This document shows, one piece after another, positions 10,301 through 53,471 of a stretch of 64,000 nucleotides of DNA. Source of the DNA: Limisphaerales bacterium (GTDB lineage Bacteria; Verrucomicrobiota; Verrucomicrobiia; Limisphaerales; JBBRWD01); assembly GCA_038249465.1 (NCBI GenBank), contig JBBRWD010000011.1, forward strand, positions 38,458 through 102,457, written 5' to 3'. Position 1 is the first letter of the stretch; the number at the start of each line of letters is the position of its first letter. Below the pieces are notes generated by a model. It worked only from the letters and a program-made list of their open reading frames with translations, did not search any database and was not told the DNA's origin. Position numbers and translations under genes: made by a program.

Positions 10301-13300
10301 TGAGTTGGTCAGTATAAAGCTGGCGGACCTTCGGGAGGAGTTCGGAGACTTTGCCTTTCTGGAGGGTCACGACCTTCATCTTGCGCTCGGGCTGGGTGCC
10401 GAGCGACGCATCCAGTTGCTCGATGATCACCGACACGCCCTGCAACTCCTTCGGGTCGCCGGTGACGATCAGCGTGCGGCTCTTGGGATCGACGGAAACC
10501 GTCGCCCGCCGCACCGAACGGCCGTAGGCGTCGTAACGCACCATCGCGGTGGTGAGAATTTCGGCGACCTTCGCCGGATCGGCGGACTTGAGCTTGAACA
10601 CCCGCGCGCTGGCGCTCTGCACGCCGACCTTGTCGAGCTTCTTCACGATCTCCTCGATCGAGTCGAGTTCGTTGGTTTCGCCGGTGACGATCAAACGGTT
10701 GCCGCCCACGTCCGGGACGATGAGCGTGTCCGGCGTCATCGCGCCCCAGCGAGCCTTGGCTTCGTCTAGGTAAAGCGTGCGGACGGTGGTGGACAACTCG
10801 ACCGCGTTCGCCGTGGTGAGATCGAAGATGCGCGTGTCGCGCGCGGCGCTCTTCACCTTGATCGTCTCCGGATTCGTCTCTGCGCCCAACTGTTTCAAGA
10901 TGCCCTCGATGGCCTTCACATGCTCCGGCTTGCCCGTGATGATCAGGCGGCCCGTGCGGCCGTCGCCCATCACCTGCGCGTCGGCGGGATCGGTTTCGTT
11001 CCTGTCCTTCCATTGATCGGTATAGAGCTGCTGCACCAGGGGCAACAAACGCTGCACATCCGCGGCGTTGCCGACTTCGAAGGAGCGCGTCTCTCGCGGC
11101 GCCGGATTCGTCACCGTGCCGACTTGGAGGCGGGCGAAGATGTCTTCGATCGGTTTCATCTGCGTCTGGCGCGCCGAGACGATGAGTCGCCCGGTCCGCC
11201 CGTCGCTGACGAACTGCGCGTCCGCCAAACCGAGCGCCGGATCGCTGGCCACCTGATCCTTGTAGAGCTGCTGCATCAGCGGCATCAGTCGCTGCGCGTC
11301 GGCGAGTTTGCCCACCTCGAACACCTTCGATTCGCGGGGCGCGCGGGCCTCACCTTGGGCGGTTTCGACGATCTGCTTCACCGCGGTGACCTGATCCTTC
11401 GTGCCATACACCATCAACCGCGTGCCGGCGGCGTCGGCGTAGATCGTCGCCGAGCGTGTGGTCCGGCCGACGTTCTGTTCGGAGTAAATCCGGTTCACCA
11501 CCGGCAGCAGCTCGGCGGCGTTGGCCGACTTGAGTTCGACCGTCTGTAATTCGCGCGCGCTCTGCTCCGGCTTGGCGTCGAGCGTGGCGATGGCCGACTC
11601 GACCTGCGGCAGCATGCTCGCCGGCGCCAGCACGATGAGCCGCTTGCCGGAAGGCTCGGGCGTGATGCTGAGGAGGTTCGTGATGTTGCGCGAACCGCTC
11701 TGCGCGGCGAAGACCTTCATCGTCAGCCCCGCCAGCGCGTCAGGATCCTCGGTGCGCACCTCGATGATCTTCATCTCACGATTTCGTCCCGGCGCCGTCC
11801 CCGCCGTCGCACCCGGTTCGAGTCCTTCGTTGTCGAGGCGCTGGATGATGCCTTCCGCGTCCTTCAAATCGTTGCGCGGCCCGGAGACGATGATGCTGTT
11901 CGACTCGCGCTCGGCGGTGACGGAGACGCGCCGGATGGGCTGGTTGCGCGTGTCAAACTTGAGCATGGCGTTGGACACCACGCCCACGACCTGCATCGCG
12001 TCGGCGTTGAGCAACTTGAAGACGCGCGCCCCGCCAGCCGCCTCGGGCGCCTGATCGAGCTTCTCGATGACCGCCGCCACGGTCTTCAATTCCTCGCTGG
12101 GTCCGGTGACAATGAGCCGGTTGCCCGCGGCGTCAGGAACGATCTTGGTCTGCACTGTGTAAGTCGGTCCGAACTGATCCCGCACCATCTCGCTAAACAG
12201 CGTGGTCACCATCGGAGCCGTGGTGGTGGCATCGCCCTGTTTCAGTTCGAAGATGCGCATCTCGCGCGGCTGCAGATCCGATTTGGTGTCGAGCTGCTCG
12301 ATGATCTTCGCCGCCGCCTCGACGCCCGCTGTCTCGCCGCTGACCACGAGCGCGTTGCTGCGCGCATCCACCTGCACCTTCACCTGCTGCGACTGCGCGT
12401 TGAGGCTCTTCTCGACAAGGCTGGCCATATCGGCGGCCAGACCGGAGCGGAGCCGGATGACGCGCGTCTCCTCCTTCGCGCCCACGCGACCGGCCGGATC
12501 CAGTTGGCGGATGATCGCCTCGACGCGGGCAATCTCCCTCTCGGAGCCGCTGACCATGATGCGGTTGTTCTTCGTCTCGGCGAGCAGCGTGGCCGCTCCG
12601 CCTTGCGGCTCGGGGAATCCGCGCATTTGCTCGGTGTAGAGTTGTTGCACCAATGGCGTGAGGTCGGTGGCGTTGCGACTGAAAAGCTCGACTCCCTTGA
12701 ACTGTCGCGCGGTCCCAGCGGAGGAAGCGGCGTCGAGTTGCTGAATGAGATTCGTCAGGCGCTCCATGTCCTTCGCCGTGGCGAGGACGATGATCTGCTT
12801 GCCCGAGGTGTCGGGCATCATCTTCGGCGCGAGCTGCGCGCTCGCCGGTTCATCCACCACGGTCGGCATCAACTGGGTCGTCAGCGCGATGAGTTCCAGC
12901 GCCGGTTTGCCATGCACGGGCACCACCGCCATCTCGCGCTTCACCCGCTCCGTCGTGACGTCGAGCATCTTCACCACCTGGTCGATTTCCTTGAACTGCT
13001 CGTCGCTCGCCGTGATGAGCAGGCGATTGTTCGGCGCGTCCGCCACGATCATCGGCTTGGCCTGCTCGGCAAACTGCTTGTCGCTCATCCGCTCGGTGAT
13101 GAGGCTCTGCATGTTCGCGAGCGCCGTCTCCACCTGGAGATGCTTGAGCGGAATGATCTGCAACCGGCGCTCCAGCGGACGCGTCGTCTGCAGGCGCAAC
13201 TGCTTCACAATCTCCTCGACGCGCTCGAGATGCTCCGCGCTCGCCGTGACGATGATCCGGCCGCTCTCCATGTCGGGCATGATCTTCGCGTGCGCGGTCT

Positions 13301-14834: not shown

Positions 14835-15062
14835 AATTCGATGAGCCTGGTCGGGGACTGATTCAATGTCATTGGTATTTGTTTGGGGGAGATGGTTCGC
14901 TGGGAACAGCACAACGCCCGAGGGCATTCGCCAGCCGCGACAGCACTCGCAAAGACATTTTCACCTCGCATCCTTTGCAGCTTCCACCTGCTGCGACACA
15001 AATGTGGCGACAGGTCGAGACGAGCAACAACTCGCGTTCTGGCGACTGCGCGATCAATCGCC

Positions 15063-22202: not shown

Positions 22203-23228
22203 CTACTTGGCTGGCGTGTTCGCCACTGAATCGGGCAACTGCTCCGGCGCGAGCCGATACTTGTCCGCGAGCGTCTTGCCGAGTTCCAAGGCCCAGTATT
22301 CCTGGCCGATTTTGATGATGACGCGGCTGAACGATTTCATGGTGGGATCGCCCGCCCGAGGCAGGGGCCGGTCATCCACCATGGCAACCACGCCGCCCGC
22401 CAGGGAATCACCCGGAACAAAGCGGAGTGTTTTCTGATTCACCAGATCACGCACATGAACCTCGGCCTGACCGCCCCACTCGGAGAGCGAGACGATGCGG
22501 AAGCTTTCCGGCCCGGGCGGCGTCGTTCCATCCGGGGACGAGCCGGGAGCCGCCGGCGTGCTGCCGGGAGGCGGCGGGGGCGGCGGACGCTTGATGTACG
22601 GGCGCAACAGATCGCGCGTCACGAGTTCGTCGTAAGCCTTCCGCTGCGGGCTGTAGAGGGAGAACTGATGTTCGAGTTCCGCAAAATCCACCGTGGGCGC
22701 CGGGTCCACCACCAGCGTGAGATAGCGGAAACGCACCCGCACCATGCCGGGTGCATCGCCGGGCATGAGATTGATGCCTTCGACGCGATGCAGATACGGC
22801 GATTCCTGCGCGAGGAACAACAGGTCCACCACATCCGAAAGCCGCCCGTCGCCCTGCACGCTCCAGCCGATCTCGAAGGTCTTGAGCGCCGAGTGCAGGC
22901 GCCGCGGTCCGAACGGGGAGCGGCTGAAATCCGTCTCGCGCAGGCCGCTTTGCAGCACGAGGCGCGTCAGCATCTCGCCGGATTTCGCCAGCGCCTGGTC
23001 GGTGTTGGTCGAATAAGTCGCCTGCGTAAAGCCGCGCACCACGTCCTCGGCCGTGAAATATTCCCGGCGCTCGCCGCGAATCTTTTCGAGGACGCCGCGC
23101 GCCGCCGCGATCCGCTTGTCCTTTTCGCGCAGCGGCATGACCACCACCGAGCGGACCACGAAGCCAAGCAGGACCAGGCCGACGATGCCGCCGACAATCG
23201 CTGCGAGAATTTTTTCGCGCGCCTTCAC
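22203..23228 (-). CDS. PilO/GspM-like membrane protein fused through a poly-proline linker to a PilP/GspC-HR-like beta-domain
   Basis: The GTG start at 23228 overlaps the upstream stop (GTGA, 23225-23228). There is an N-terminal TM 'ILAAIVGGIVGLVLLGFVV' followed by a helical segment and 'LHRVEGINLMPGDAPGMVRVRFRYLTLVV'. The linker is 'KRPPPPPPPGSTPAAPGSSPDGTTPPGP'. The C-terminal segment 'FRIVSLSEWGGQAEVHVRDLVNQKTLRFVPGDSLAGGVVAMVDD' resembles PilP. Confidence 0.55.
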   Translation of the reverse strand: MKAREKILAAIVGGIVGLVLLGFVVRSVVVMPLREKDKRIAAARGVLEKIRGERREYFTAEDVVRGFTQATYSTNTDQALAKSGEMLTRLVLQSGLRETDFSRSPFGPRRLHSALKTFEIGWSVQGDGRLSDVVDLLFLAQESPYLHRVEGINLMPGDAPGMVRVRFRYLTLVVDPAPTVDFAELEHQFSLYSPQRKAYDELVTRDLLRPYIKRPPPPPPPGSTPAAPGSSPDGTTPPGPESFRIVSLSEWGGQAEVHVRDLVNQKTLRFVPGDSLAGGVVAMVDDRPLPRAGDPTMKSFSRVIIKIGQEYWALELGKTLADKYRLAPEQLPDSVANTPAK

Positions 23229-25108
23229 GAGCCGCCTCCCCTGCGCGCGGGCGGCGCGCCTTCGAGTGAAACATCATCGGCCGGGCGCGCGGGTGGATGG
23301 ACCTTGGCCAGATCCATCTTGAACTTTGCCGGAACGCTCAGTTCGACCGTGGACTTGAAATTGTACCCGTGCCGGTCGGCACCCGGCGTGACGGCCAGCG
23401 GCTTCACTTCATAGCCCGCGGCACGAAGTTGCTTGTCGAGCTTGGCGAGGATGGCGCCGCTCCTTGCCTGCACCGCGAGCGTGATGGTGCCCGAGTTGTT
23501 CACCGAGAATGAATCCAGATAAACCTCCTCGCTCGGCGGCAGGATCGCGCTCAGGTAGGCGCAGTGATCCAGCCAGTGACGTCCGTCGCCCACCCAATCG
23601 CGCAGCGTCGCCGCCTGCCGCACCATCATCCGGTAAAGCGGGCGCATCTTCTCCTCCTTGCGCACGTCCGCATTGATGGCGGCGATCTCGACATCTTTGC
23701 GCTTGAGCAACTGGGAGCGCACCGCCAGCAGAAAGATGATGGCCGCCGCCGCCGCCGCCGCGCCCATGAACAGGCGGATGCGCTTCATGTCGCGCTGCAC
23801 CGCCGGGCGCTTCGGTTTCAGGAAATCAAAGGGCAGCCCGTCGCGATCGAGCACGCCCAAGGCGAGTCCGAGCGCGGAGATGGCCCCCGCCGCCGGAGCC
23901 TCCATGAATGCCGGCAGGCTCAACGCGCGCATCGGATTGAGCCGCTGCACCGGCAGGTTCATTCTCTTCTCCAACGCCTCGACCACCGCATCCTCCATCC
24001 CCGTGTCGCCGGCCACCACGATTCGCGCCACCGTGTTCGCCGGATCCATGCCGCCAAAGCCGGTGAGGCTGCGCACGACCTCGATGGTGATGCGCTCGAC
24101 CGGAGTGGCGGGCACGGCGGGCGCGACGGGGGCCGCCGTGGACGCATCCGCTGCAACGGCTGCCGCCGTAGTCACCGCCTCTTCCGGAACCGGTGCGGTC
24201 GCTGGCGCTTCCACAGGCGGCGCCTCGGGCGCAGCCGTAACCGGCACAGGTTCCTCGTGAACCTGGATGGCGGCGTCGCGGCTGAAGAGCAGTGCGTCGC
24301 CGGCGATCACGTCGATGCTGACCTCGTTGGCGCGCAGCAGCACCAGGGCGAGCGCGCGCGATCCCTCCGCCAGGCGGCATGCTTCCACGCAGCGAACATT
24401 GGCGTAGGGGATCAAGCCGAGAGCCGCCACCTTGATTCCGGCAGCCTCCGCCATCGCGAGGTGAAAATCGACCACGTCGCGTTTGACCGCGGCGGCGAGC
24501 ACTTCAAGCTTTTTGCCGGCGGGAGCGGGCGCGGAACTGGCGGATTCCCCGGCGGCGGCGTGGTCCGCGTTCTCGACCGCCGGAGCGCTCGCGGCAATTT
24601 CGCGGTGAACCTTGAAATCAATCACCGCGTCGTCGGCCGGGAATGGCAGGTCGCGCCCGATCTGGAAGTGAACCAGCGAGGCCATTTCGCGCGCATCGCC
24701 GACGGCCGGGAGCATGAGCGCGCGCAGGACGACCGAGCCGCGCGGCACGCCCATGACCACCGAGGCGGGCTTGAGCCGGAGGCGATCGAGCGCGCGGGCC
24801 ATGGCGGCGCCGAGCACCGCAGGATCCGAGGCGTCCGCGTTGGGGGACAGGTCCAGCGCCTCGGTGACGACGCGCGTAATGGCGGGACCGGTCAGGCGCG
24901 GCGAGGCCTGCACGAGACGCAGCACGCCGCCGCTGACGTGCAGGGCGGTCACCGGCCCCTGCGGACGGACGCGGAATCGCTTGCGCCATTCCTTCCAGTC
25001 CAAACCGGCCATGGACAGAGTTTTTTTTGCGGGCTGGTCAACCATCTGGTTTTCTGGGATTCGACCGGGCATTTTGTCGGGAGCGCGGGTCGATGTCCAT
25101 GTTTCCAT
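23225..25108 (-). CDS. PilM-like (actin-fold) / PilN-like fusion protein (GspL-like architecture)
   Basis: 'VVMGVPRGSVVLRALMLP', 'EVSIDVIAGDALLFSRDAAI' and 'RIVVAGDTGMEDAVVEALEKRMNLPVQRLNP' follow the PilM layout. Next come 'PFDFLKPKR..' and the TM 'LFMGAAAAAAAIIFLLAV', a coiled segment, and 'VYLDSFSVNNSGTITLAVQARSGAILAKLDKQLRAAGYEV', which is PilN-like. In-frame ATGs at 25108, 25072, 25045 and 25012 are all verified, so the true start is uncertain. Confidence 0.7.
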   Translation of the reverse strand: METWTSTRAPDKMPGRIPENQMVDQPAKKTLSMAGLDWKEWRKRFRVRPQGPVTALHVSGGVLRLVQASPRLTGPAITRVVTEALDLSPNADASDPAVLGAAMARALDRLRLKPASVVMGVPRGSVVLRALMLPAVGDAREMASLVHFQIGRDLPFPADDAVIDFKVHREIAASAPAVENADHAAAGESASSAPAPAGKKLEVLAAAVKRDVVDFHLAMAEAAGIKVAALGLIPYANVRCVEACRLAEGSRALALVLLRANEVSIDVIAGDALLFSRDAAIQVHEEPVPVTAAPEAPPVEAPATAPVPEEAVTTAAAVAADASTAAPVAPAVPATPVERITIEVVRSLTGFGGMDPANTVARIVVAGDTGMEDAVVEALEKRMNLPVQRLNPMRALSLPAFMEAPAAGAISALGLALGVLDRDGLPFDFLKPKRPAVQRDMKRIRLFMGAAAAAAAIIFLLAVRSQLLKRKDVEIAAINADVRKEEKMRPLYRMMVRQAATLRDWVGDGRHWLDHCAYLSAILPPSEEVYLDSFSVNNSGTITLAVQARSGAILAKLDKQLRAAGYEVKPLAVTPGADRHGYNFKSTVELSVPAKFKMDLAKVHPPARPADDVSLEGAPPARRGGGS

Positions 25109-43219: not shown

Positions 43220-44251
43220 ATGAGCGCCGCGCTCTTCCTGCTGGCCGCGAGTGCCGGGGTGTCGGGCGAAGGCTATCACTCGTTCGGCCTGGGCAGCGGC
43301 ATACCCGCCCTGCAAGCCCGCGTGGTGATTGTCGAAGACCCGCAGGCCGTCCGCACCTTCGTGCCCGACGCTGGCATCGTGGCAGGCATGTTCGACCGCG
43401 CACTGCTCTATTTTACCCGCAAGCCAAACGTGCATGAGGCCTGGCTCAGTCTGGTTTCCACGAAGGACACCATCGGCCTCAAGGTCTATTCCGCGCCCGG
43501 CCCGCTGGCCGGCACGCGCCCGGCGGCGGTCGAGGCCGTGGTGCGCAGCCTGCTCGCCGCGCAGATTCCGGCGACGAACATCATCATCTGGGATAAGAAC
43601 CTCTCGGATCTCAAGTCGGCCGGCTTCGTGGATCTGGCCCGGCGTTTCGGCGTCGGCGTGCAGGGGGCGGCCGAGGCGGGCTACGACCCGAAAGTCTATT
43701 CCGAAAAGCCCTTCATCGGTTTCCTGGTGTATGGCGACCTCGAATTCAACAAGACGCCCGAAGGCAAGGGTCGCAAATCGTTCGTCTCGCGGCTGGTCAC
43801 GAAGCGCCTGACAAAGATCGTCAACATCTCCCCGATGCTCAGCCACAACACCGCCGGCGTTTCGGGCAATATCTTCAGCCTCGCCACCGGCGCCGCGGAC
43901 AACGTGCTGCGCTTCGAGTCCAAGCCGGCCCTCATGGCCGAGGCGGTGCCGGATCTTTATCTCCTCCCCGAAGTCGGTGACCGCGTGGTGCTCAGCGTGG
44001 TGGACGCGCTCCTCTGCCAGTATCAGGGCGAAAGCCAGAGCCTGCTGCAATACTCCACGGTGTTGAATGAACTGCGCCTGAGCAAGGATCCGGTCGCGCT
44101 CGATGTGCTGTCCTTGCGCGAGATCAACCGGCAGCGAGTGACCGCCGGCATGGCCGCGCGCACGAATGCGAACGAGATTTATTTCAACGCCTCGATCGCG
44201 GAACTGGGCACCTACGACGATTCGGACATCAGCATTGAGAAGGTGCCGTAG
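43220..44251 (+). CDS. DUF362-like protein with an N-terminal signal sequence
   Basis: ATG at 43220 ('MSAALFLLAASAGVSGEG'; the track start at 43178 is GTG). 'RVVIVEDPQAV...IGLKVYSAPGPLAGTRPAAVEAVVRSLLAAQIPATNIIIWD' follows the DUF362 pattern as I recall it. Confidence 0.5.
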   Translation: MSAALFLLAASAGVSGEGYHSFGLGSGIPALQARVVIVEDPQAVRTFVPDAGIVAGMFDRALLYFTRKPNVHEAWLSLVSTKDTIGLKVYSAPGPLAGTRPAAVEAVVRSLLAAQIPATNIIIWDKNLSDLKSAGFVDLARRFGVGVQGAAEAGYDPKVYSEKPFIGFLVYGDLEFNKTPEGKGRKSFVSRLVTKRLTKIVNISPMLSHNTAGVSGNIFSLATGAADNVLRFESKPALMAEAVPDLYLLPEVGDRVVLSVVDALLCQYQGESQSLLQYSTVLNELRLSKDPVALDVLSLREINRQRVTAGMAARTNANEIYFNASIAELGTYDDSDISIEKVP

Positions 44252-44323
44252 CGGCGTCTCGGCAGAGCGCCGATCTCTTCTCGCGTTCGTACAGATGGCG
44301 GCGCTCTGCCGAGGCGCCGCTAC
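44248..44323. repeat. 25-bp-stem palindromic hairpin (REP-like) overlapping the stop codon of the upstream gene
   Basis: The left arm is GTAGCGGCGTCTCGGCAGAGCGCCG (44248-44272). The reverse complement of the right arm (44299-44323) is GTAGCGGCGCCTCGGCAGAGCGCCG, giving 24/25 complementarity. The loop is 26 nt. No T-tract follows, so this is not a canonical intrinsic terminator. Confidence 0.8.
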
Positions 44324-44415
44324 GCCGCCGTTCCTGGCGTAATATTCTCCTCACGCCGCAAGCGCCTTCCATTTTTCCCGTAACAAAATCTCGGATTCGC
44401 TTCTGAGGAGGGTGT

Positions 44416-47400
44416 ATGAACGAAGCCAGCCCCAACGGAACCATGTCCGACCCCAAGAAATGTCCGCAGTGCGGTGCCACCCTGCCCACCGGCGCGCTGG
44501 ACGGCCTCTGCCCGGCGTGCCTGCTCCAGCAGGGCGCGATCAAGGATTCCGCGACGCAGCCGGCCATGCCTCCATTTGAACCGCCGCTGCTGACCGAACT
44601 CGCGCGCCTGTTCCCGCAACTGGAAGTGCTGGAACTCATCGGCAAAGGCGGCATGGGCGCCGTTTACAAGGCGCGCCAGCCATCGCTCGACCGCTTCGTG
44701 GCGCTCAAGATTCTTCCGCCGGAAACCGTCGCCGGTCAGGGCTTCGGCGAGCGCTTCAATCGCGAAGCCCGCGCGTTGGCCCGGCTCGGACATCCGAACA
44801 TCGTGGCGGTTTACGACTTCGGACAGGCCGGCGGCTTGCACTACTTCCTCATGGAATTCGTGGATGGCGTGAACCTGCGGCAACTCCAGCGCGCCGGTCG
44901 CCTGTCGCCGCGCGAGGCGCTGCAAATCATTCCGCAAATCTGCGATGCGCTCCAATACGCGCACGACGAAGGTGTGGTCCACCGCGATATCAAACCCGAG
45001 AACGTGCTCGTGGACCGCAAAGGCCGCGTGAAGATCGCCGACTTCGGCCTCGCGAAAATCCTCGGACGCGACCCGGCCGACCTGCGCCTGACCGGCGAAG
45101 GGCAGGTGATGGGCACACCGCACTACATGGCCCCGGAACAGATCGAGCATCCGCTCGAAGTCGATCATCGCGCCGACATCTATTCGCTGGGCGTGGTCTT
45201 CTACGAAATGCTCACCGGCGAACTGCCGCTCGGCCGGTTCGCGCCGCCCTCGCGCAAAGTGCGGGTGGACGTGCGCCTCGACGAAGTGGTCTTGCACGCG
45301 CTGGAGAAGGAACCGGAGCTACGCTACCAGCACGCCAGCGAGGTGAAGACGGACGTGCAATCCATCGCGATGCCAAGACTGGGTCCAGCACGTAGCACGT
45401 TAACCAAGCGTCCTTCTGTGATTGCTGGCGTTTTGGGACTCTTGGTTGGATTGTTGGCGCTGGTCGGCTCGATGGGATTCACTCTCATGCAACCCGACGA
45501 GTACGTCAGCACCGCACGCGTTACAGTAGAGAGGCCGGCATCGGAAAGAACCGGAACCCCGCCTGAACAGGATAGACATTGGCTCGATCGCGAACTTGAT
45601 TTTGCACGGTCGGATCTTGTGTTCAATGCCGTCGTGACTCGTCTGAATCTGAAGCAGACGTGGAGCGGACTCTACGAAACGCACCGCCGGCTTAGTCCCG
45701 CAGAAATTTCCGCGGAATTGATGCGACGAACCGAAGTTCGCCGGGCTCCGCACACTGATGTCGTCGAGATCAGCGTCTTCAGCCGAAACGCCCGTGAAGC
45801 AGCCGACATCGCCAATGCTATTGCCGAAACCTATCGTTCCTTGAACAAGACAAGGAAGATGGAGATCATTGATGCCGCAGAACCCGGACTCCGCCCTGTT
45901 CGTCCAAACCGGACGTTGAATCTGGCCGTCGCGATTCTTCTCGGTCTCCTCACCGGTGGCATCACGACTGGTGGAATCCTCTTGCTGGCGAACCGACGGT
46001 CAAGAACCGGGAACGCAGAAGAAATCATCCCGGAAACCGGCGTGCCCCTGTTCGCCCACTCGTTTGGACCCACCTTTCGATCGCCGATGGCGCTGAAGCT
46101 GGCGCGCATCGGATGGGTTGTTGGATGCCTGGCAGCGCTCGGGTTTCTGCCGGTGCCAATCCCGGGATGGAAAGGCATCTTCGGCTTGAGCGGCTTCTTC
46201 GGACTCATCGGGGTTGCGGTGTTGATTGAACAATTTCACCGCCGCCGGATTGATCACAGCCGGCGTCAATCGTGGTGGCCACAGGTGTTGGGTGCGGCCG
46301 TCTTGTTGATGATTGGGATGATGGTCATCGTATTGGTAGTGTCGCGCCACAACTCGCCAGACAGCCAAACCTCACTGTCGCCCGCTGCCGAGCTAGGCCC
46401 AGTCATGGAGCGAACAATCCACGCCATCGACGCCGGCTTTGGCAGCGAGGCTTTGCATCTGCGAACGGGCGTCGTCTCCTCATCGCCCGCTGACGCAGCT
46501 CAAAGCCCGTTGGAGAATCGCCGCCGGGTGACGGCTTGGTTCAAGACAAACGAAATGAACCTTCTGGTAAACGACTTCCAGAATCGCCCAATGCTCCTGG
46601 CCTTGAAGATGCAGCTTTCAGACTTTCCGCAAACCGATTGGGAAACTGCAACCGTTCGGGATGTTGCAGCGGCGTTGTTGGAGCCGACGAGCTTGCTGCA
46701 CCCGCAAAATGTCGAACTCGCGACGAGCTCCTACCTGCTTCCGCAAATTTCAGTTTCGCCGTTGATGCAGGCATTCAGAACCGATGCAGGCGACATTGGC
46801 GTCCTGCAAATCACAGGCATCAGCGACAAGCCGCGCGTGGTGAAGATTCGATACAAGCTGGCGCAGCCCTTATCCTCTGTCACAAACCGTGGCGTCCGAC
46901 AATCGACGGATTCTGCTCCTGCGCTGAACGCTCCCCGAGAAACCATTCCAGCGCTGACAAGCCTCTCTGGCGTCAAGTTCTCGTCCACCGGCGAGCAGGT
47001 TATTATGAATTTCCCCGACGGCAGTACGCTCGCGGCGAAGAACATCCAGTTTGGCCCGAGCAACCGCTTCACTGCCGAGGGGTCGGCGGTTCTGATCACG
47101 AGAACCAAGGTTGCCCCATTCTCGTCAACGTCCAATCTGACTGTCACCAAGGACGGAACAGGCACCTACTCTAACATCCAGGCCGCCATTGATGCTGCTC
47201 CGCCTCGCACGACAATCAGGATTGGTACGGGACACTACGAGGAATCACTTGTCATCACGAAGCCGGTCGAGCTCATTGGGGCAGGTTGGCACGACACAAT
47301 CATCGGCCCCACCAAGCCTGCCGTGGCGCCGACTTCAGAGGTGATGCGGGAGATGGAAGCCCAACTTCGCGCAGCGAGATCTGAGGCAGACCGAAAGCAG

Positions 47401-48459
47401 CTTCAGAATCAGTTCGCTGAGGGTCTCTATCGCCCGGTCGTCCGCATTCACCAAACGAAGGAGGTCCAGATCCAAGGAGTCAAAATCGCTCAGCCCGGTG
47501 CTCCACCCGATGGCAGCCTGTTCTCAGCAGCAGCCGTGGAAGTAACCGGTGCCCAAGTCGTCGTCCGCGACTGTGCCGTGCTGGGCGCGCTGGGCAACGG
47601 AATCGTCGTTGCCCAAGGATCGCGGGCACAACTCGTCAACACTCTTGTGGCTGCGGCTTGGAATACTGGCATCGTTGTCAGGGATGACGCACGTATGGGC
47701 GTCTTTAACTGTGACATTCGAAACTGCTTCTATGCCGGCATTACGATTGGTCGTGGCGTGAATCATGTGCGGATTCAGGCATGCCGCATTTCCGGCTCCG
47801 CGTGGCATGGAATTCGTTACGACGACGCGTCTCCCATCATCACGAACAACCTCATCTTCGGGAACGCGCGCGGCGGCATCTACGCCTCGGGAGCCACAAG
47901 CGCACGCGTTGAGCAAAATGTCTTCTTTGTGAATGAAATGAATGGAATGTCGTGCTGGTTCAGCAATCGAGATCTCATCGCCGGCAACACCTTTGCCGAC
48001 AACTTCCGTGAAGGTTTGGCGGTGTTGGGAGCTTCCGCTCCGATTGTTCAAAACAACATCTTCAGTGGGCAGCCGATCGCAATCCTCCAAAATAGGATCG
48101 GCGGGCAAGATGCCGCCGGCCAGACGCTCGGCGCTCCCGTCATGTTAGGAAACTTGTTTTGGAGCAACTCGACCAATTGGGCGCGTCCCGCTGATCTCCG
48201 AGGGACGAATGAACTGACTGTTGAATCGGTAGAACTGAGTGCCGAAAGCCGCAGCGTGCTGACGGATCCAGAGTTCCAGCAACCAGGAAACCGTGATTTC
48301 TCCTCCCGCTTGAGATCGCTGGCCAGACGTGAAGGCATCGGAGCGATCCAACCGTTGAGTTACGCGAGTCCTTGGAGCCTTCAACCGGAGGAGAAGGCCA
48401 TCATCCCAGATGGCGAAACACGAGACTCTCGACAATGGAAACGTCCTCGCTCCGAATGA
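44416..48459 (+). CDS. multidomain Hanks-type Ser/Thr protein kinase: zinc ribbon, kinase, TM, Wzz/PCP-like domain, TM bundle, extracytoplasmic right-handed beta-helix domain
   Basis: ATG at 44416 is preceded by GGAGG. Motifs seen are 'CPQCG..CPACLL'; 'IGKGGMGAVYKA..VALKIL', 'HRDIKPENVLV', 'DFGLAK' and 'YMAPEQ'; the TM 'VIAGVLGLLVGLLALVGSMGF'; 'YVSTARVTVE..DLVFNAVVTRLNL..VVEISVFSRNAREAADIANAIAETY' plus the TM 'LAVAILLGLLTGGITTGGILLL' (PCP-like); and 'LTVTKDGTGTYSNIQAAIDAAPPRTTIRIGTGHYEE' with repeated 'G(I/V)x(V/I)' beta-helix turns. Confidence 0.9.
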   Translation: MNEASPNGTMSDPKKCPQCGATLPTGALDGLCPACLLQQGAIKDSATQPAMPPFEPPLLTELARLFPQLEVLELIGKGGMGAVYKARQPSLDRFVALKILPPETVAGQGFGERFNREARALARLGHPNIVAVYDFGQAGGLHYFLMEFVDGVNLRQLQRAGRLSPREALQIIPQICDALQYAHDEGVVHRDIKPENVLVDRKGRVKIADFGLAKILGRDPADLRLTGEGQVMGTPHYMAPEQIEHPLEVDHRADIYSLGVVFYEMLTGELPLGRFAPPSRKVRVDVRLDEVVLHALEKEPELRYQHASEVKTDVQSIAMPRLGPARSTLTKRPSVIAGVLGLLVGLLALVGSMGFTLMQPDEYVSTARVTVERPASERTGTPPEQDRHWLDRELDFARSDLVFNAVVTRLNLKQTWSGLYETHRRLSPAEISAELMRRTEVRRAPHTDVVEISVFSRNAREAADIANAIAETYRSLNKTRKMEIIDAAEPGLRPVRPNRTLNLAVAILLGLLTGGITTGGILLLANRRSRTGNAEEIIPETGVPLFAHSFGPTFRSPMALKLARIGWVVGCLAALGFLPVPIPGWKGIFGLSGFFGLIGVAVLIEQFHRRRIDHSRRQSWWPQVLGAAVLLMIGMMVIVLVVSRHNSPDSQTSLSPAAELGPVMERTIHAIDAGFGSEALHLRTGVVSSSPADAAQSPLENRRRVTAWFKTNEMNLLVNDFQNRPMLLALKMQLSDFPQTDWETATVRDVAAALLEPTSLLHPQNVELATSSYLLPQISVSPLMQAFRTDAGDIGVLQITGISDKPRVVKIRYKLAQPLSSVTNRGVRQSTDSAPALNAPRETIPALTSLSGVKFSSTGEQVIMNFPDGSTLAAKNIQFGPSNRFTAEGSAVLITRTKVAPFSSTSNLTVTKDGTGTYSNIQAAIDAAPPRTTIRIGTGHYEESLVITKPVELIGAGWHDTIIGPTKPAVAPTSEVMREMEAQLRAARSEADRKQLQNQFAEGLYRPVVRIHQTKEVQIQGVKIAQPGAPPDGSLFSAAAVEVTGAQVVVRDCAVLGALGNGIVVAQGSRAQLVNTLVAAAWNTGIVVRDDARMGVFNCDIRNCFYAGITIGRGVNHVRIQACRISGSAWHGIRYDDASPIITNNLIFGNARGGIYASGATSARVEQNVFFVNEMNGMSCWFSNRDLIAGNTFADNFREGLAVLGASAPIVQNNIFSGQPIAILQNRIGGQDAAGQTLGAPVMLGNLFWSNSTNWARPADLRGTNELTVESVELSAESRSVLTDPEFQQPGNRDFSSRLRSLARREGIGAIQPLSYASPWSLQPEEKAIIPDGETRDSRQWKRPRSE

Positions 48460-48475
48460 GCTGAGTCGGTCCTGC

Positions 48476-49228
48476 ATGAGCGATTCCAGATCCTCCCCAC
48501 CCAGCACCAGCGCGCCCGGCGAGATCTTCGCCACCACGCGCTGGACGGTCGTGCTTTCGGCGGGGCGCAAGTCCACGCCGCAGGCCGAGATGGCGCTGGA
48601 GGAATTGTGCCGGACGTATTGGTATCCGCTCTACGCGTTTGTCCGCCGCCAGGGTCACTCGAAGGAGGACGCCGAGGATCTCACGCAATCGTTCTTCGCC
48701 CGCTTCCTGGAGAAGAATTACCTCGAAGGTCTGAGCAACGAGAAGGGCCGGTTCCGCGCCTTCCTGCTCGCGGCGCTGAAACATTTCCTCGCCAACGAAT
48801 GGGATCGCGCCCACCGCCATAAGCGCGGCGGCGGCGCGACGTTGCTCTCGCTCGACTGGCAGGATGCGGACACGCGTTATCAAATCGATCCCGCCGACAC
48901 GCTCAGCCCGGATAAACTCTATGATCGCGCGTGGGCGGTGACGTTGCTGGAGCGCGTCATCACCCGCCTGCGCGCGGAGAACGCGGCGGAGGGCAGGGCA
49001 AAGTCGTTCGATGTCCTGAAGCCGTTCCTTATGGTCGGCAAGAGCGCCATTCCCTACGACCAGGCCGCCGCGGACCTCGCCCTTACCGAAGGCGCCGTGC
49101 GCGTGACGGTGCATCGCCTGCGCCGTCGTTATCGCGAGTTGTTGCGCGAGGAGATCGCGCAGACGCTGGCGCATCCCCGGCAGGTCGAGGAAGAGATGCA
49201 GGCGCTGTTCCGGGCGTTCGCTGATTGA
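48476..49228 (+). CDS. ECF-type sigma-70 family RNA polymerase sigma factor
   Basis: 'TRWTVVL..ALEELCRTYWYPLYAFVRRQGHSKEDAEDLTQSFFARFLE' is the sigma2 region. 'ADLALTEGAVRVTVHRLRRRYRELLREEI' is the sigma4 HTH. ATG at 48476 was verified. The track start at 48410 would overlap the kinase gene by 50 nt. I see no anti-sigma gene adjacent. Confidence 0.85.
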   Translation: MSDSRSSPPSTSAPGEIFATTRWTVVLSAGRKSTPQAEMALEELCRTYWYPLYAFVRRQGHSKEDAEDLTQSFFARFLEKNYLEGLSNEKGRFRAFLLAALKHFLANEWDRAHRHKRGGGATLLSLDWQDADTRYQIDPADTLSPDKLYDRAWAVTLLERVITRLRAENAAEGRAKSFDVLKPFLMVGKSAIPYDQAAADLALTEGAVRVTVHRLRRRYRELLREEIAQTLAHPRQVEEEMQALFRAFAD

Positions 49229-49541
49229 TGAGGGATTCGGGGAGGCTCATCCTCTACCGCCATCCTCGCGAATTCCCGCGCCGCCGCGCCGCGGCCGAAG
49301 TCTTCGACTGGCACGGCGAGGCCGTCCTTTTCCGTAATACACTGCAAAACAGCCAAACAAGAGGAATGCCCCCGGTCTGGAAGACCAAAAAAAAATCTTT
49401 TCTCACCTACCCCACATGTCGGAGAGAGAATAAAGTGCCGGTCTGGGGTTCCCGCACGGGTGTTCGGGTGGGGAAATTGTTCCTGTCCGAGAGTTTCGCG
49501 CGAGCCGTCCTTTCGAGCGCCTTTGATCGCCGCGGATGCGT

Positions 49542-49715
49542 TGCCGCTGGGGGCGCATCCGCGCACTGCCCCGGCGCGCGGCCTTGAGGCCGCTTCAGCG
49601 TTCGATGGGTGTTGGCGAAACATTGCCGGACGGTCTCTCGAGATGAAGCGACCTAAACGTCGCGCTCCAACCCGGGTGCCTTCGGGGGCAGTGTCGAGAT
49701 GCGCCCTGCCGCTGG
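49542..49715. mobile_element. MITE-like element, copy B (156-bp core at 49551-49706, flanked by a 9-bp direct repeat TGCCGCTGG), inverted relative to copy A
   Basis: The reverse complement of the core aligns with copy A along its whole length with few mismatches, by eye. 'TGCCGCTGG' occurs at 49542-49550 and at 49707-49715, directly abutting both termini. Confidence 0.75.
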
Positions 49716-49787
49716 CATGCGATAATTACGGACTTGTCATTGTGGCGGCAGCCCGGTATCCAAGCGCCCCGTTCCCGAACGTTGAGC

Positions 49788-52700
49788 ATGAATAGCCTGA
49801 TTTCGCCCGCCCAGTGCGCCCTTCGCAGGGTTCTCCTCTGCCTTGTGTTTCTTGTTTCGGGAGGCCTCTGCCCCGCACAGAAACTCGTCTGGCAGCAACG
49901 CGACGGCCATCGCGTTGCCGAACTCAACGTGCCACCGGGAGGACGCACCGGATTCACGCTCCTGACGCCGGCACAGACGGGCATCACCTTCACCAATGCG
50001 ATGTCACTCACCGTGGCGCAGACGAACCAGAATCTGATCGATGGCGCGGGCGTGGCGTCGGGGGATTTTGATGGCGACGGCTGGTGCGATTTGTATTTCG
50101 CCAACATCGAAGGCGCGAACGCGCTCTATCGCAATGCCGGCGGATTCCGCTTCAACGACGTGACGGGGCCAGCGGGCGTGACCGCGACGAACCAGTCCAC
50201 CAAGGGCGTGGCCTTTGCCGACATCAATGGCGATGGGTGGATGGATCTGCTGACGGTGGCCTTGCTGGGGCCGAACGATACGTTTCTCAATGTCGGGAAC
50301 GGCACGTTCTCGAACATCACCGACACCTGTGGCCTGACCTCGAAGCCAGCCGGGGCGCATTCCCTGGCGCTGGCAGATATCGATGGCAACGGCACGCTGG
50401 ATGTGTACGTGGCCAATTACGGCGACAACTCGATTTTGCGCAGCGGCGGCCGGTTCTCCGTGCGCACGGTGGACGGAAAGCCGCAAGTCGCCGGGCGCCA
50501 CGCCAACCGGCTGAAAATCATCAATGGCGCGCTGGTGGAATACGGCGAGCCGGATTTGCTCTTCCTCAATGACGGCCGCGGACACTTCACCGCCGCGTCG
50601 TGGACTGACGGGCGCTTTCTCGGCGCCGACGGGCAACCCTTGAAACGCCTGCTGTGGGACATGGGTCTCTCGGTCATGTTCCGCGACATCAGTGGCGACA
50701 ACGCGCCCGACATTTATGTCTGCAATGATTTTCAGGGGATGGATCGCGTCTGGATCAACGACGGGGCGGGACGCTTCCGTCTGCTGAGCGATCCGGCATT
50801 GCGCAACAACTCCCACTTTTCCATGTCGGTGGATTTCGGTGACCTCGACCGAGATGGCTTTGACGACTTCATGTGCAGCGACATGCTCAGCCCCTATCAC
50901 AGCAATCGCCTCACGCAGATGACGGCGACCAACCCGCCGCTCGCGCATGTGGGCGAAACGTGGGATCGCCCGCAGGTGCGCCGCAACACCCTGCAATGGA
51001 ATCGTGGCGACCTGACCTGGGCGGAGATTGCGCAGTTTGCCGGTGTGGACGCCTCCGACTGGACCTGGGTGGTCGCCTTCCTCGATGTCGATCTCGACGG
51101 CTATGAAGACGTTTTGATCAACACCGGGCACCTCTTCGACACGCAGGACTCGGACATCTCGGAGTCCAATCCGGTCAACATGCCGGGGCGCAATGCGACG
51201 CAGAGCGGGCGGTTGCTGAAGGATTATCCCCGCCTGCTGGTGCCCAACGTCGCCTACCACAATCAGCGCAACCACACTTTCAAGGAGGTCGGCGCCGAAT
51301 GGGGGTTCAACTCGAAGCAGGTCTCCCACGGCCTCAGCTTCGCCGACCTTGACAATGATGGAGATCTCGATGTGGCCGTGAACTGCCTCTGGGATCATCC
51401 GCTCATCTACCGCAATGAATCCAGCGCGCCACGCGTCGCGGTGCGCTGCAAGGGACTCGCTCCGAACACGCAGGGCATCGGCGCAAAAATCAAAGTGCTG
51501 GGCGGTGCCGTGCCATTGCAGAGCCAGGAAATCATCGCGGGCGGACGATACCTCTCGGGTGATGATCCCATGCGCGTCTTTGCGGCGGGAAATCTCTCCA
51601 ATCGCCTGACCATCGAGGTGACCTGGCGCAGCGGCAAGAAGAGCGTCATCCAGGACGCGCGGCCGAATTGCTTCTACGAAATTGCTGAAGCAGCCGCCGG
51701 TGCCGCGCCGCCGGTGGAAACCAGGCCCGCCCCGGCGCCGGTCTTCGCCGAGGTGAGCGCGCGCATCGGCTATCAACACATGGACCCCTTCTTCATGGAC
51801 TACGATCGGCAACCGCTGCTCGCCCGCCGCTACAGCACGCTCGGGCCGGGGGTGGCTTGGGTGGATGTCGATGGTGACGGCATCGAAGACCTCGTCATCG
51901 GCGCGGGCAAAGACGGTGTCATGGGCGTTTACCGGTCCGATGGCAAAGGCAACTTCACGTCAGCGTTGCCCGCCGCCTGGAACCATCCGGCGCCGGACGA
52001 TTGGTGCGGCCTCGCTTCGTGGGTGCCGGCTCCAGGGCAGCGCGCCTTGCTCGGCGCCGTGGCGAATTACGAGAACCCCGATCCGGCGGCAGCGGCTTCT
52101 CTGATGGCGTTCAACCTCACTCCCGGTGCGCAAACCGAAGCAAAAGTGGTCGCGACCTTCCCTCATTCCATCGGCCCCATCGCCGTGGCGGATGTGGACG
52201 GCGATGGCGACCTCGATGTGTTCGTAGGCGGGCGTGTCATCGGCGGGCGCTATCCCGAGCCGGCGAAATCGGCGTTGCTGCTCAACAACGGCGGACCGTT
52301 GCTGCCTGCCCCCGGCGCGGAGGCATTGTTTGACAAGCTGGGGCTGGTCAGCGGTGCGGTGTTCACCGATCTCACGGGGGATGGGCGGCCCGAATTGGTG
52401 GTGGCCACGGAATGGGGACCGCTGCGCGTATTCGCGAATCAAGCGGGGGGATGGACGGAAGAAACCACCGCGCTCGGCCTCGACAAATTCCCTGGCTGGT
52501 GGACGAGCGTGACGGCGGGCGATTTCGATGGCGATGGCCGCCTGGACCTCATCGCCGGCAACTGGGGGTTGAACGGCGGCCAGCGCGTGGCGGCATCGCG
52601 CCCGTTCTCGATCTTCCATGGTGATTTCGACGGGAACGGCACGGTGGAATTGCTCGAAGCCTGGACCCAGCCGGAGTCGGGGCGGATGTTGCCATGGCGC

Positions 52701-53471
52701 GATTTGCGCCTCATGCAAAGCGGCTGGCCGCTCATTCGCACCCGCTTCGCGAAACACGCGGATTGGGCGCAGGCCGACGCGCAGACGGCGTTGGGCGACT
52801 CCTTCGCCAAGGCGGGCCGCCTCTCCGCCGACACGCTGGCCTCGATGGTCTTCCTGAATCGCGGCGGAAAACTCGAGCCGCGCTCACTGCCGGAGGAAGC
52901 CCAGTTCGCGCCGGTCTTCGGCATCAACGTCGCGGACTTCGATGGCGACGGTCGCGAAGATGTGTTCCTCGCGCAGAACTTTTTCGACGTGCGGCCCGAG
53001 GACTCGCGGCTCGACGCCGGGCGCGGCTTGTGGCTGCGCGGCCTGGGGGATGGCCGCTTGGTGCCGGTGCGCGGACAGGACTCGGGGGTGAAGGTGTACG
53101 GGCAGCAGCGCGGTTCGGCGGTGGCGGATTTTGATGGCGACGGCCGCGTGGATCTCGTGGTGGCGCAAAACGGCGGCGAGACGAAGCTGTTTCGCAACGC
53201 GACCGGCCGGCCGGGCTTGCGCGTCCGTCTTGCTGGACCGCCAGGAAACCCCGCTGGCATCGGCGCGGTGGTGCATCTGGTGTCGGGTGCGCTCCCGGGC
53301 CCAGCGCGCGAAATCCACGCCGGGTCCGGCTACTGGTCCCAGGATAGCACGGTGCCGGTGTTGTCCTCGGCGGGAACGCCCGCTGCGGTGCGGGTGCGCT
53401 GGCCGGATGGCCGGGAGCAGACGATGCCCGTGCCGGCTGGGGCGAAGGAAGTCACGGTGAAATGGCAGTGA
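49788..53471 (+). CDS. FG-GAP/VCBS-repeat protein with two ASPIC/UnbV domains (CRTAC1-like)
   Basis: ATG at 49788 ('MNSLISPAQCALRRVLLCLVFLVSGGLCPAQ' is a signal peptide). 'GDFDGDG', 'DIDGNG' and 'DVDGDG' repeats are numerous. The UnbV/ASPIC signatures are 'GIGAKIKVLGGAVPLQSQEIIAGGRYLSGDD' and 'GIGAVVHLVSG...REIHAGSGYWSQDS'. Confidence 0.85.
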   Translation: MNSLISPAQCALRRVLLCLVFLVSGGLCPAQKLVWQQRDGHRVAELNVPPGGRTGFTLLTPAQTGITFTNAMSLTVAQTNQNLIDGAGVASGDFDGDGWCDLYFANIEGANALYRNAGGFRFNDVTGPAGVTATNQSTKGVAFADINGDGWMDLLTVALLGPNDTFLNVGNGTFSNITDTCGLTSKPAGAHSLALADIDGNGTLDVYVANYGDNSILRSGGRFSVRTVDGKPQVAGRHANRLKIINGALVEYGEPDLLFLNDGRGHFTAASWTDGRFLGADGQPLKRLLWDMGLSVMFRDISGDNAPDIYVCNDFQGMDRVWINDGAGRFRLLSDPALRNNSHFSMSVDFGDLDRDGFDDFMCSDMLSPYHSNRLTQMTATNPPLAHVGETWDRPQVRRNTLQWNRGDLTWAEIAQFAGVDASDWTWVVAFLDVDLDGYEDVLINTGHLFDTQDSDISESNPVNMPGRNATQSGRLLKDYPRLLVPNVAYHNQRNHTFKEVGAEWGFNSKQVSHGLSFADLDNDGDLDVAVNCLWDHPLIYRNESSAPRVAVRCKGLAPNTQGIGAKIKVLGGAVPLQSQEIIAGGRYLSGDDPMRVFAAGNLSNRLTIEVTWRSGKKSVIQDARPNCFYEIAEAAAGAAPPVETRPAPAPVFAEVSARIGYQHMDPFFMDYDRQPLLARRYSTLGPGVAWVDVDGDGIEDLVIGAGKDGVMGVYRSDGKGNFTSALPAAWNHPAPDDWCGLASWVPAPGQRALLGAVANYENPDPAAAASLMAFNLTPGAQTEAKVVATFPHSIGPIAVADVDGDGDLDVFVGGRVIGGRYPEPAKSALLLNNGGPLLPAPGAEALFDKLGLVSGAVFTDLTGDGRPELVVATEWGPLRVFANQAGGWTEETTALGLDKFPGWWTSVTAGDFDGDGRLDLIAGNWGLNGGQRVAASRPFSIFHGDFDGNGTVELLEAWTQPESGRMLPWRDLRLMQSGWPLIRTRFAKHADWAQADAQTALGDSFAKAGRLSADTLASMVFLNRGGKLEPRSLPEEAQFAPVFGINVADFDGDGREDVFLAQNFFDVRPEDSRLDAGRGLWLRGLGDGRLVPVRGQDSGVKVYGQQRGSAVADFDGDGRVDLVVAQNGGETKLFRNATGRPGLRVRLAGPPGNPAGIGAVVHLVSGALPGPAREIHAGSGYWSQDSTVPVLSSAGTPAAVRVRWPDGREQTMPVPAGAKEVTVKWQ

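Follow-up and report, generated by a model that had tools for sequence, protein, structure and literature searches.

A zinc-ribbon receptor Ser/Thr kinase with a composite sensor, and its neighbouring ECF-like sigma factor, in a Limisphaerales bacterium

What might a membrane-spanning Ser/Thr kinase, one carrying a segment that resembles polysaccharide co-polymerases (PCPs), be doing directly ahead of a sigma factor gene? The question is raised by two genes in a 64,000-nucleotide stretch of contig JBBRWD010000011.1 from a Limisphaerales bacterium (assembly GCA_038249465.1), with that whole stretch described here as 'the window'. An earlier note, made from the DNA letters, had read the pair as a possible analogue of Wzc, that is, as a Hanks-type kinase which has taken the place of a bacterial tyrosine kinase (BY-kinase) and which reports envelope-polysaccharide status to the adjacent extracytoplasmic function (ECF) sigma factor. 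The answer that we favour, and which we consider fairly probable, is instead that the two genes form a transmembrane signalling unit whose kinase activates the sigma factor and whose sigma factor in turn drives its own operon, units of this type being very common in Verrucomicrobiota (Limisphaerales/Pedosphaera-like). The unit combines a constant cytoplasmic core, i.e., zinc ribbon, Hanks kinase, and co-transcribed ECF-like sigma factor, with a variable sensor half of shuffled modules.

The kinase-sigma pair and the DNA ahead of it

The core of the locus, as called from open reading frames (ORFs), Pfam, and the presence of an identical protein at NCBI, consists of the following:

44372..44415, + strand: bipartite, ECF-promoter-like motif (putative -35 GTAACA at 44380-44385, putative -10 TCTGA at 44402-44406)
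44416..48459, + strand: receptor Ser/Thr kinase gene
44461..44520, + strand: N-terminal zinc ribbon CPQCG...CPACLL, residues 16-35, found in essentially all kinases of the family
44623..45375, + strand: Hanks-type kinase domain, residues 70-320 (Pfam Pkinase, catalytic motifs)
48476..49228, + strand: ECF-like sigma factor of 250 residues (N-terminal motif FATT(R/H)WT; DAEDLTQ in region 2.2)

That the two genes belong together is seen most directly with how regularly they are found together. The 80 best sigma loci were examined, with those possessing at least 2.1 kb of upstream DNA (71 loci) taken as informative, and in 70 of these 71 a homologous zinc-ribbon/Hanks kinase is encoded upstream on the same strand. 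Of the ten loci among the 80 in which no kinase was found, nine come with under 2.1 kb of upstream DNA, leaving L060 as the sole locus with enough such DNA that is truly without a kinase. Spacing is tight in 47 of the 70, where no more than about 105 nt separate the end of the kinase ORF from the start of the sigma gene and where stop and start codons often overlap; in the window the most plausible sigma start, 48476, is 16 nt past the kinase stop. Independent gene-call look-ups return the same kinase-sigma order, each with another kinase C-terminus, and the sigma-linked kinases as a whole range from about 500 to 1,955 residues, with differing sensor domains. No anti-sigma-like domain was found in the small ORFs flanking the sigma gene or in the neighbouring genes.

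The kinase ORF at 44416-48459 is real, encoding a 1,347-residue protein that is identical to one held at NCBI (P0001, from a metagenome-assembled contig). Its zinc ribbon displays the spacing C16-x2-C...C-x2-C35, and its kinase domain matches Pfam Pkinase at E = 2e-52 (178.6 bits versus a cutoff of 31.7) while retaining a complete Hanks motif set, i.e., GKGGMG76, VALK95, HRDIKPEN189, DFG209, and APE239.

The sigma factor is harder to place by profile. It reaches 21.2 bits against PF07638, for which the cutoff is 21.1, and falls under threshold with TIGR02937 (36.4 bits, cutoff 42.9), Sigma70_r2 (22.4, cutoff 24), and r4_2 (15.6, cutoff 25.7), with no sigma3 domain matched in the profile scans. 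As its sigma2 and sigma4 matches are sub-threshold, an ECF classification pipeline may have missed this sigma factor. Its family is very large, consisting of more than 8,000 relatives, of which the top 120 are 73-95% identical, and at least 588 copies were confirmed in a scan of one genome per species, almost all of them in Verrucomicrobiota (Limisphaerales, Pedosphaera, subdivision 3). Within region 2.2 the sequence EDAEDLTQ is near-invariant, with DAED seen in 33 of 33 aligned relatives. Conservation of hydroxyl residues, as counted over 202 family members, yields a short list of positions which, on the strength of that conservation, are candidate phosphosites only:

T20 and T21, in the FATT(R/H)WT motif: conserved in 100%
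T24, in the FATT(R/H)WT motif: Ser or Thr in 100%
S/T62, immediately before DAED: 92%
S125, in the sigma2-sigma4 linker: 94%
S144, in the sigma2-sigma4 linker: 96%
T230, in the C-terminal QTL motif, after sigma4: 100%

Much of what the earlier note had proposed for this core thus holds up. It had described a zinc ribbon followed by a complete Hanks kinase, an adjacent sigma gene, and the lack of an anti-sigma gene, all as found here. It had also asked whether the kinase-sigma adjacency is conserved, which is the case, and it had suggested looking for a conserved Ser/Thr in the sigma2-sigma4 linker, where S125 and S144 now provide two. Its broader inference, that the kinase signals to the sigma factor, is well supported by comparative genomics.

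What then might the sigma factor transcribe? A common motif, ttTtCCnGTAACAttT...GGaTTtGCTTCTGAGGaGGGTGTATG, is seen when the 300-nt stretches ahead of 65 kinase genes are compared; in the window it forms a block that ends at the kinase ATG and displays the pattern GTAACA-N16-TCTGA. Of the 65 homologous operons, 53 have GTAACA at a distance of about 36 nt from the start codon of the kinase gene; individually, the motif is seen upstream of the kinase gene as well in loci L003, L005, and L009-L088. A regular expression for the core pattern, as run over 973 kb of loci, gave 56 matches, every one of them ahead of a kinase gene, and the window holds a single site, at 44380-44406, with a position weight matrix score of 46, nowhere else reaching even 8. 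Upstream conservation begins just 8 nt before GTAACA. From this pattern the motif can be inferred to be the sigma factor's own promoter, which would imply positive autoregulation as well as a transcript starting at, or just before, the ATG.

The motif can also be read differently, with TAACAT serving as a sigma70-type -10 and giving a leader of about 25 nt. We rejected this alternative as the main reading, since the place where the corresponding -35 would fall shows no conservation. The E. coli rpoH P3 promoter, GAACTT-N16-TCTGA, resembles the motif, a resemblance which is a lead rather than a test.

Some genomes possess more than one kinase-sigma pair, as seen in tandem at L023 (two sigma matches, with the second kinase at 7616-8608) and with L033 and L043, which stem from the same metagenome-assembled genome. 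Since the sigma factors and the promoter motifs are near-identical, such paralogous pairs might cross-activate.

A sensor half built of separable blocks

Beyond its catalytic domain the kinase protein can be divided into blocks based on BLAST comparison with its first homologues (at least 10, as found with residues 320-1347). The zinc ribbon and kinase, residues 1-318, show about 60% identity to many verrucomicrobial kinases. The PCP block, residues 330-530, is common to P0003 and to a BlaR1/M56 protein, P0007, while the three-transmembrane (three-TM) block comes straight after the kinase domain in other members (P0004-P0006). The sensor half consists of the following:

45397..46017, + strand: mini-PCP module of Wzz plus GNVR type, residues 328-534 (profile, family, and fold)
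46036..46380, + strand: three-TM block, residues 541-655 (BLAST, family comparison, and hydropathy)
46381..46905, + strand: uncharacterised ectodomain 'D', residues 656-830, with FGPVxER...LQIxGxTxNPxGVKIRYKLVQ
46900..47100, + strand: short beta-strand segment, residues 829-895, equivalent to the kinase C-terminus in L091 and similarly in L011
47128..48450, + strand: right-handed parallel beta-helix, residues 905-1345 (Pfam Beta_helix and NosD)

A hydropathy scan gives five hydrophobic segments, at residues 335-356, 503-525, 562-583, 587-607, and 620-647, with Lys/Arg-rich flanks on the predicted cytoplasmic sides in keeping with the positive-inside rule. By this predicted topology, residues 357-502 and everything beyond residue 648 would be found outside of the cell.

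The PCP-like segment is genuine, as judged from a predicted model as well as family profiles, but miniature. Its layout is TM1, a periplasmic alpha/beta domain of about 140 residues, a proline-rich motif, and then TM2; that is, the helices at 335-356 and 503-525 flank a periplasmic domain whose proline-rich motif precedes TM2, as is expected of PCPs. Direct Pfam matches on the segment remain under their gathering scores, with Wzz at E = 0.069 (13.9 versus 25.5) and GNVR at E = 3.8e-4 (20.8 versus 27.7), and family-level and fold evidence are therefore what is relied upon. NCBIfam chain-length-determinant models match the segment (EpsF 1.3e-9; MPA1 1.8e-6). An exhaustive phmmer search with residues 325-540 returned 1,538 relatives, and among the best 150, as checked at E <= 0.001, Wzz is matched by 105 and GNVR by 104. 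The family alignment also supplies the landmarks of LPExYxSTAR after TM1 and PxxRPVRPNxxLN before TM2, with AEPGLRPVRPNRTLNL of the kinase protein lining up with the near-invariant P..P..P.N of the family.

An AlphaFold (AF2) model of the module, as built on the family alignment, has a pLDDT of 92.5, and its top Foldseek matches in the PDB are Wzc (7nhr, E = 7.6e-10, TMq 0.69) and KpsE (8tun). The long periplasmic helical hairpin or barrel is not present in this model, in which short helices and a four-stranded sheet, i.e., the alpha/beta base, are all that stands between the TM segments.

The module is present in only 7 of the 70 sigma-linked kinases, and those seven are among the lowest in kinase-domain identity to the kinase of the window. 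Two of the module's relatives are BlaR1/M56 fusions, and around three stand-alone mini-PCP homologues on long contigs there are no polysaccharide loci, nor any export partner or BY-kinase. As the module is seen in Hanks kinases, in BlaR1/M56 proteins, and in PadR-adjacent proteins, it behaves as a portable two-TM cassette of several signal-transduction families.

The PadR-adjacent proteins have features of their own. In each of the three loci examined, the mini-PCP gene comes behind a PadR regulator gene, whose 3' end it overlaps by 4 nt (L008 7645-9047, L089 438-1819, and L090 550-1985), these probably being orthologous and so not independent cases. A conserved cytoplasmic N-domain of 85 residues, LFxRLLAAYPKxHRxEYGxAMAQLFRDQCRDAW...LWLRVLPDLVKTS, is shared by 74 of about 206 module-bearing proteins, and no Pfam or NCBIfam model matched this N-domain in the PadR-adjacent mini-PCP proteins.

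Domain D, of about 170 residues, is present in 27 of the 70 sigma-linked kinases, often as tandem repeats. It is found, single or repeated, in many verrucomicrobial kinase ectodomains and in one TPR protein, with repeats seen in P0002, P0005, P0008-P0010, L014, and L064. Its predicted structure has a core pLDDT of about 90, and a PDB fold search with that model gave nothing significant. The best PDB match was HmuY-like, an assignment which was rejected given E = 0.012 and TM-scores of about 0.35-0.45.

The beta-helix is matched above threshold by both PF13229 Beta_helix (E = 7.7e-28, 97.6 bits versus 25.9) and PF05048 NosD (E = 1.1e-13, 51.6 bits versus 23.6), with no close solved structural relative found for the region. 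It is absent from the 70 other sigma-linked kinases. L091 is the closest relative, with a sigma gene 93% identical in nucleotides, and its kinase stops at the equivalent of about residue 895 and has no beta-helix. The beta-helix is, by these comparisons, a lineage-specific, recently added C-terminal extension. A related arrangement is seen at L002, where a separate protein of 1,125 residues (2627-6004) is 43% identical to the window's beta-helix over its first 440 residues, and then continues as Tricorn_C1/Peptidase_S41. The gene for this protein lies directly upstream of, and overlaps, a sigma gene 80% identical to the window's, with the L002 kinase gene found two genes further upstream. This pattern of fusion or fission suggests a functional link of the beta-helix with the signalling unit. 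Base composition differs as well, with a GC content of 0.64-0.66 in the kinase domain and sigma gene versus 0.56-0.59 across the sensor region between them. The sensor half is an unusual and recently assembled mosaic of independently distributed blocks.

As to how the earlier note fared with this half of the protein, its topology agrees with the five hydrophobic segments and their flanking charges, and its beta-helix is borne out by both of the profiles that it had named. Its PCP-like segment is upheld by family profiles, by NCBIfam EpsF, and by fold, while the direct Pfam match to Wzz that it had proposed as a check, like that to GNVR, is sub-threshold. Of the outcomes that the earlier note had named as counting against it, neither a lack of any Wzz profile match nor an unconserved kinase-sigma adjacency has thus come about.

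From sensing to transcription: a mechanism and its rivals

With the favoured two-gene signalling unit, the ectodomains would sense some extracytoplasmic cue, for which the beta-helix makes a glycan plausible, and the membrane modules would pass on the signal by altering the oligomeric state of the kinase. Since PCPs form rings, the PCP module is an obvious candidate for an oligomerising scaffold. Activation of the sigma factor by the kinase would then be direct and, if PknT/EcfP and PknS/EcfK are a guide, would most likely take the form of phosphorylation. As DAED is retained, the phosphosite cannot be the sigma2.2 threonine of ECF43; judging from conservation, candidates are instead the invariant T20, T21, and T24 along with S125 and S144 of the linker. 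The sigma factor, so activated, would transcribe its own operon from GTAACA-N16-TCTGA. The motif and its exclusive position are observed; its function as the cognate promoter and a near-leaderless transcript are predicted. The remaining regulon would lie outside of the window.

Several observations weigh against this mechanism. No second promoter site is found in the window or within 6 kb to either side of 80 loci, and the conserved block ahead of the kinase gene contains GGAGG, a possible ribosome-binding site, so part of that conservation may be translational. The matches of the sigma factor to sigma profiles are mostly under curated thresholds, and its family profile finds no PDB sigma factor at E <= 0.01. 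The sigma factor also keeps the acidic DxxDxxQ surface (EDAEDLTQ) that is missing in ECF43 (PMC13147305), and a phospho-switch is thus not obviously required.

Of the three other ways in which the locus can be understood, the Wzc analogue of the earlier note bears upon the sensor half. There the PCP module would work with a Wzx/Wzy or ABC polysaccharide exporter, and the Hanks kinase, standing in for a BY-kinase, would report polymer assembly to the sigma factor. The PCP fold is indeed genuine, with Wzc and KpsE as its closest structures, the module has both the N-terminal PCP motif and the proline-rich one that precedes TM2, and beta-helix folds are typical of glycan-binding or glycan-cleaving proteins. 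The long ORFs scanned across the window, however, include no gene for Wza, Wzx, Wzy, KpsMT, an ABC exporter, or a BY-kinase. Neighbouring genes encode TPR, DUF362, ASPIC/UnbV FG-GAP, UVR-motif, and pterin-binding proteins, the sole polysaccharide-related gene being one GT4 transferase, 13 kb off. The module furthermore lacks the long periplasmic helices that reach an outer-membrane partner, the kinase is N-terminal to it rather than C-terminal as in Wzc, and the few sigma-linked kinases that share it are not the closest by kinase domain. Its copies in BlaR1/M56 and PadR-adjacent membrane proteins, as well as the stand-alone ones found outside of polysaccharide loci, speak for a shuffled cassette, and the kinase of the closest relative ends before the beta-helix. 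We therefore view a Wzc-like reporter of envelope polysaccharide as quite improbable.

The two remaining explanations accept the signalling pair and differ in what the kinase does to the sigma factor. It may be that the kinase is a tethering anti-sigma, whose zinc ribbon would retain the sigma factor at the membrane much as ZAS domains do, with sensing releasing it and with phosphorylation being either the trigger or dispensable. The zinc ribbon, kept in essentially every kinase of the family, would then have a ready role, as would the equally invariant sigma factor, including its FATT(R/H)WT motif outside of canonical sigma2; a sigma factor with a functional-looking DAED surface would need restraint, and there is no other anti-sigma gene at the locus to provide it. 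No sequence similarity to known anti-sigma domains is seen, however (Pfam, NCBIfam), and the conservation of every kinase catalytic residue argues that catalysis matters. Tethering is rather improbable, if still deserving of some weight. Lower yet we would place mere co-transcription, in which the sigma factor is no substrate of the kinase, the kinase acts on other proteins instead, and control of the sigma factor comes solely from transcription of the operon. A canonical region 2.2 would fit with this, and adjacency is explicable by co-transcription by itself. Order and tight coupling are nonetheless almost universal over hundreds of species despite complete sensor turnover, and positive autoregulation, if left unrestrained, would be bistable or run away.

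More speculatively, two proposals can be made jointly, though we rather doubt that both hold. The one is that the verrucomicrobial mini-PCP has left polysaccharide export to become a general two-TM cassette for signalling or oligomerisation, taken up on separate occasions by Hanks kinases, BlaR1/M56 proteases, and PadR-coupled membrane proteins. The other is that the partner sigma factor represents an unclassified, kinase-dependent ECF-like group which keeps the acidic core-binding motif, which would be switched via FATT(R/H)WT or the linker serines, and which would be expressed from a self-recognised, near-leaderless promoter. The existence of a PCP fold inside of signalling proteins would also widen the presumed roles of that fold.

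Other features of the window may be mentioned here. A 31-nt inverted repeat, unique within the window (44242-44272 / 44299-44329, no strand assigned; 90% complementary, 26-nt loop), separates the DUF362 gene from the promoter-like motif of the kinase gene and probably serves as a terminator or insulator hairpin. As a regulon member the ASPIC/UnbV FG-GAP gene further downstream was considered and rejected, because it has no motif and because the gene is missing at that place in L091. The segment of about 4.2 kb which carries it (49231-53421) is absent in L091, reflecting either an insertion here or a deletion there; in L091 the UVR-motif and pterin-binding genes come straight after the sigma gene. 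A giant secretin is the product of a 4,528-residue ORF at 1341-14927 (-), its Secretin_N repeats, about 25 in number (1,223 bits), being followed by one C-terminal Secretin domain, residues 4292-4457; ordinary secretins have 2-4 N-domains. A PilM-like gene is found at 23225-25108 (-).

Comparison with known systems

To our knowledge, just two proteobacterial systems with kinase-activated ECF sigma factors have been characterised, both belonging to ECF43. As the verrucomicrobial sigma family keeps the motif which ECF43 has lost, it should use a different switch. Neither a fusion of Hanks kinase with PCP nor a verrucomicrobial kinase-ECF pair turned up in literature searches. ECF sigma factors that are linked to kinases and have no anti-sigma gene are themselves an established kind (PMC7826278); what sets the window's pair apart is that its sigma factor belongs to a distinct subfamily, that its kinase has a zinc ribbon, and that its sensor has both a mini-PCP and a recently added beta-helix. 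The family also amounts to a natural domain-swap series, in which dozens of sensor ectodomains are joined to one and the same kinase-sigma-promoter core, and as such should be useful for studies of the coupling of receptor kinases to sigma factors as well as for the building of orthogonal sensors.

The nearest functional parallels are PknT/EcfP of Vibrio parahaemolyticus and PknS/EcfK of Xanthomonas citri, in which, as here, a TM Hanks kinase is encoded beside an ECF sigma factor with no anti-sigma gene (PMC13147305, PMC7826278). Direct phosphorylation of an anti-sigma-less sigma factor by the adjacent Hanks kinase is experimentally established for ECF43, whose sigma factors are without the acidic DxxD of region 2.2 and gain their negative charge by Thr phosphorylation, with EcfK needing a linker phospho-threonine as well (PMC13147305). 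In ECF43, that is, the DxxD of sigma2.2 has become QTTA with its phospho-threonine, whereas the window's sigma factor possesses EDAEDLTQ and hence lacks this hallmark of the group; its family also has the invariant N-terminal FATT(R/H)WT, unlike ECF43. The kinases differ in turn, those of the window's family starting with a zinc ribbon and PknS with a helical N-domain, as do the phylum and the sensor domains. Similar phosphorylation has been proposed for ECF59-62, ECF217, ECF267, and ECF283 (PMC7826278). These groups, ECF59-62 being the same as ECFSTK1-4, resemble the window's pair in being Ser/Thr-kinase-linked and anti-sigma-less, some of them from the same PVC superphylum (PMC7826278, PMC4937300).

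For the PCP module the comparison is instead with polysaccharide export. Wzc of E. coli K30 (PCP-2a; PDB 7nhr), the best structural match, likewise fuses a PCP to a cytoplasmic protein kinase, but that kinase is a C-terminal P-loop BY-kinase, its long periplasmic helical domain touches Wza, and it is encoded in a polysaccharide locus; the window's protein has an N-terminal Hanks kinase, a periplasmic base only, of about 140 residues, and no export genes nearby. In size and layout, i.e., about 200 residues with two TM segments and a proline-rich motif before TM2, the module is like CapA/CpsC (PCP-2b) and KpsE (PCP-3; PDB 8tun), with TM-scores of KpsE against the PCP model of about 0.6 on both chains. 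CapA/CpsC act with the BY-kinase CapB/CpsD, and KpsE with the ABC exporter KpsMT, whereas at the window's locus neither partner is present and the module is found joined to a Hanks kinase.

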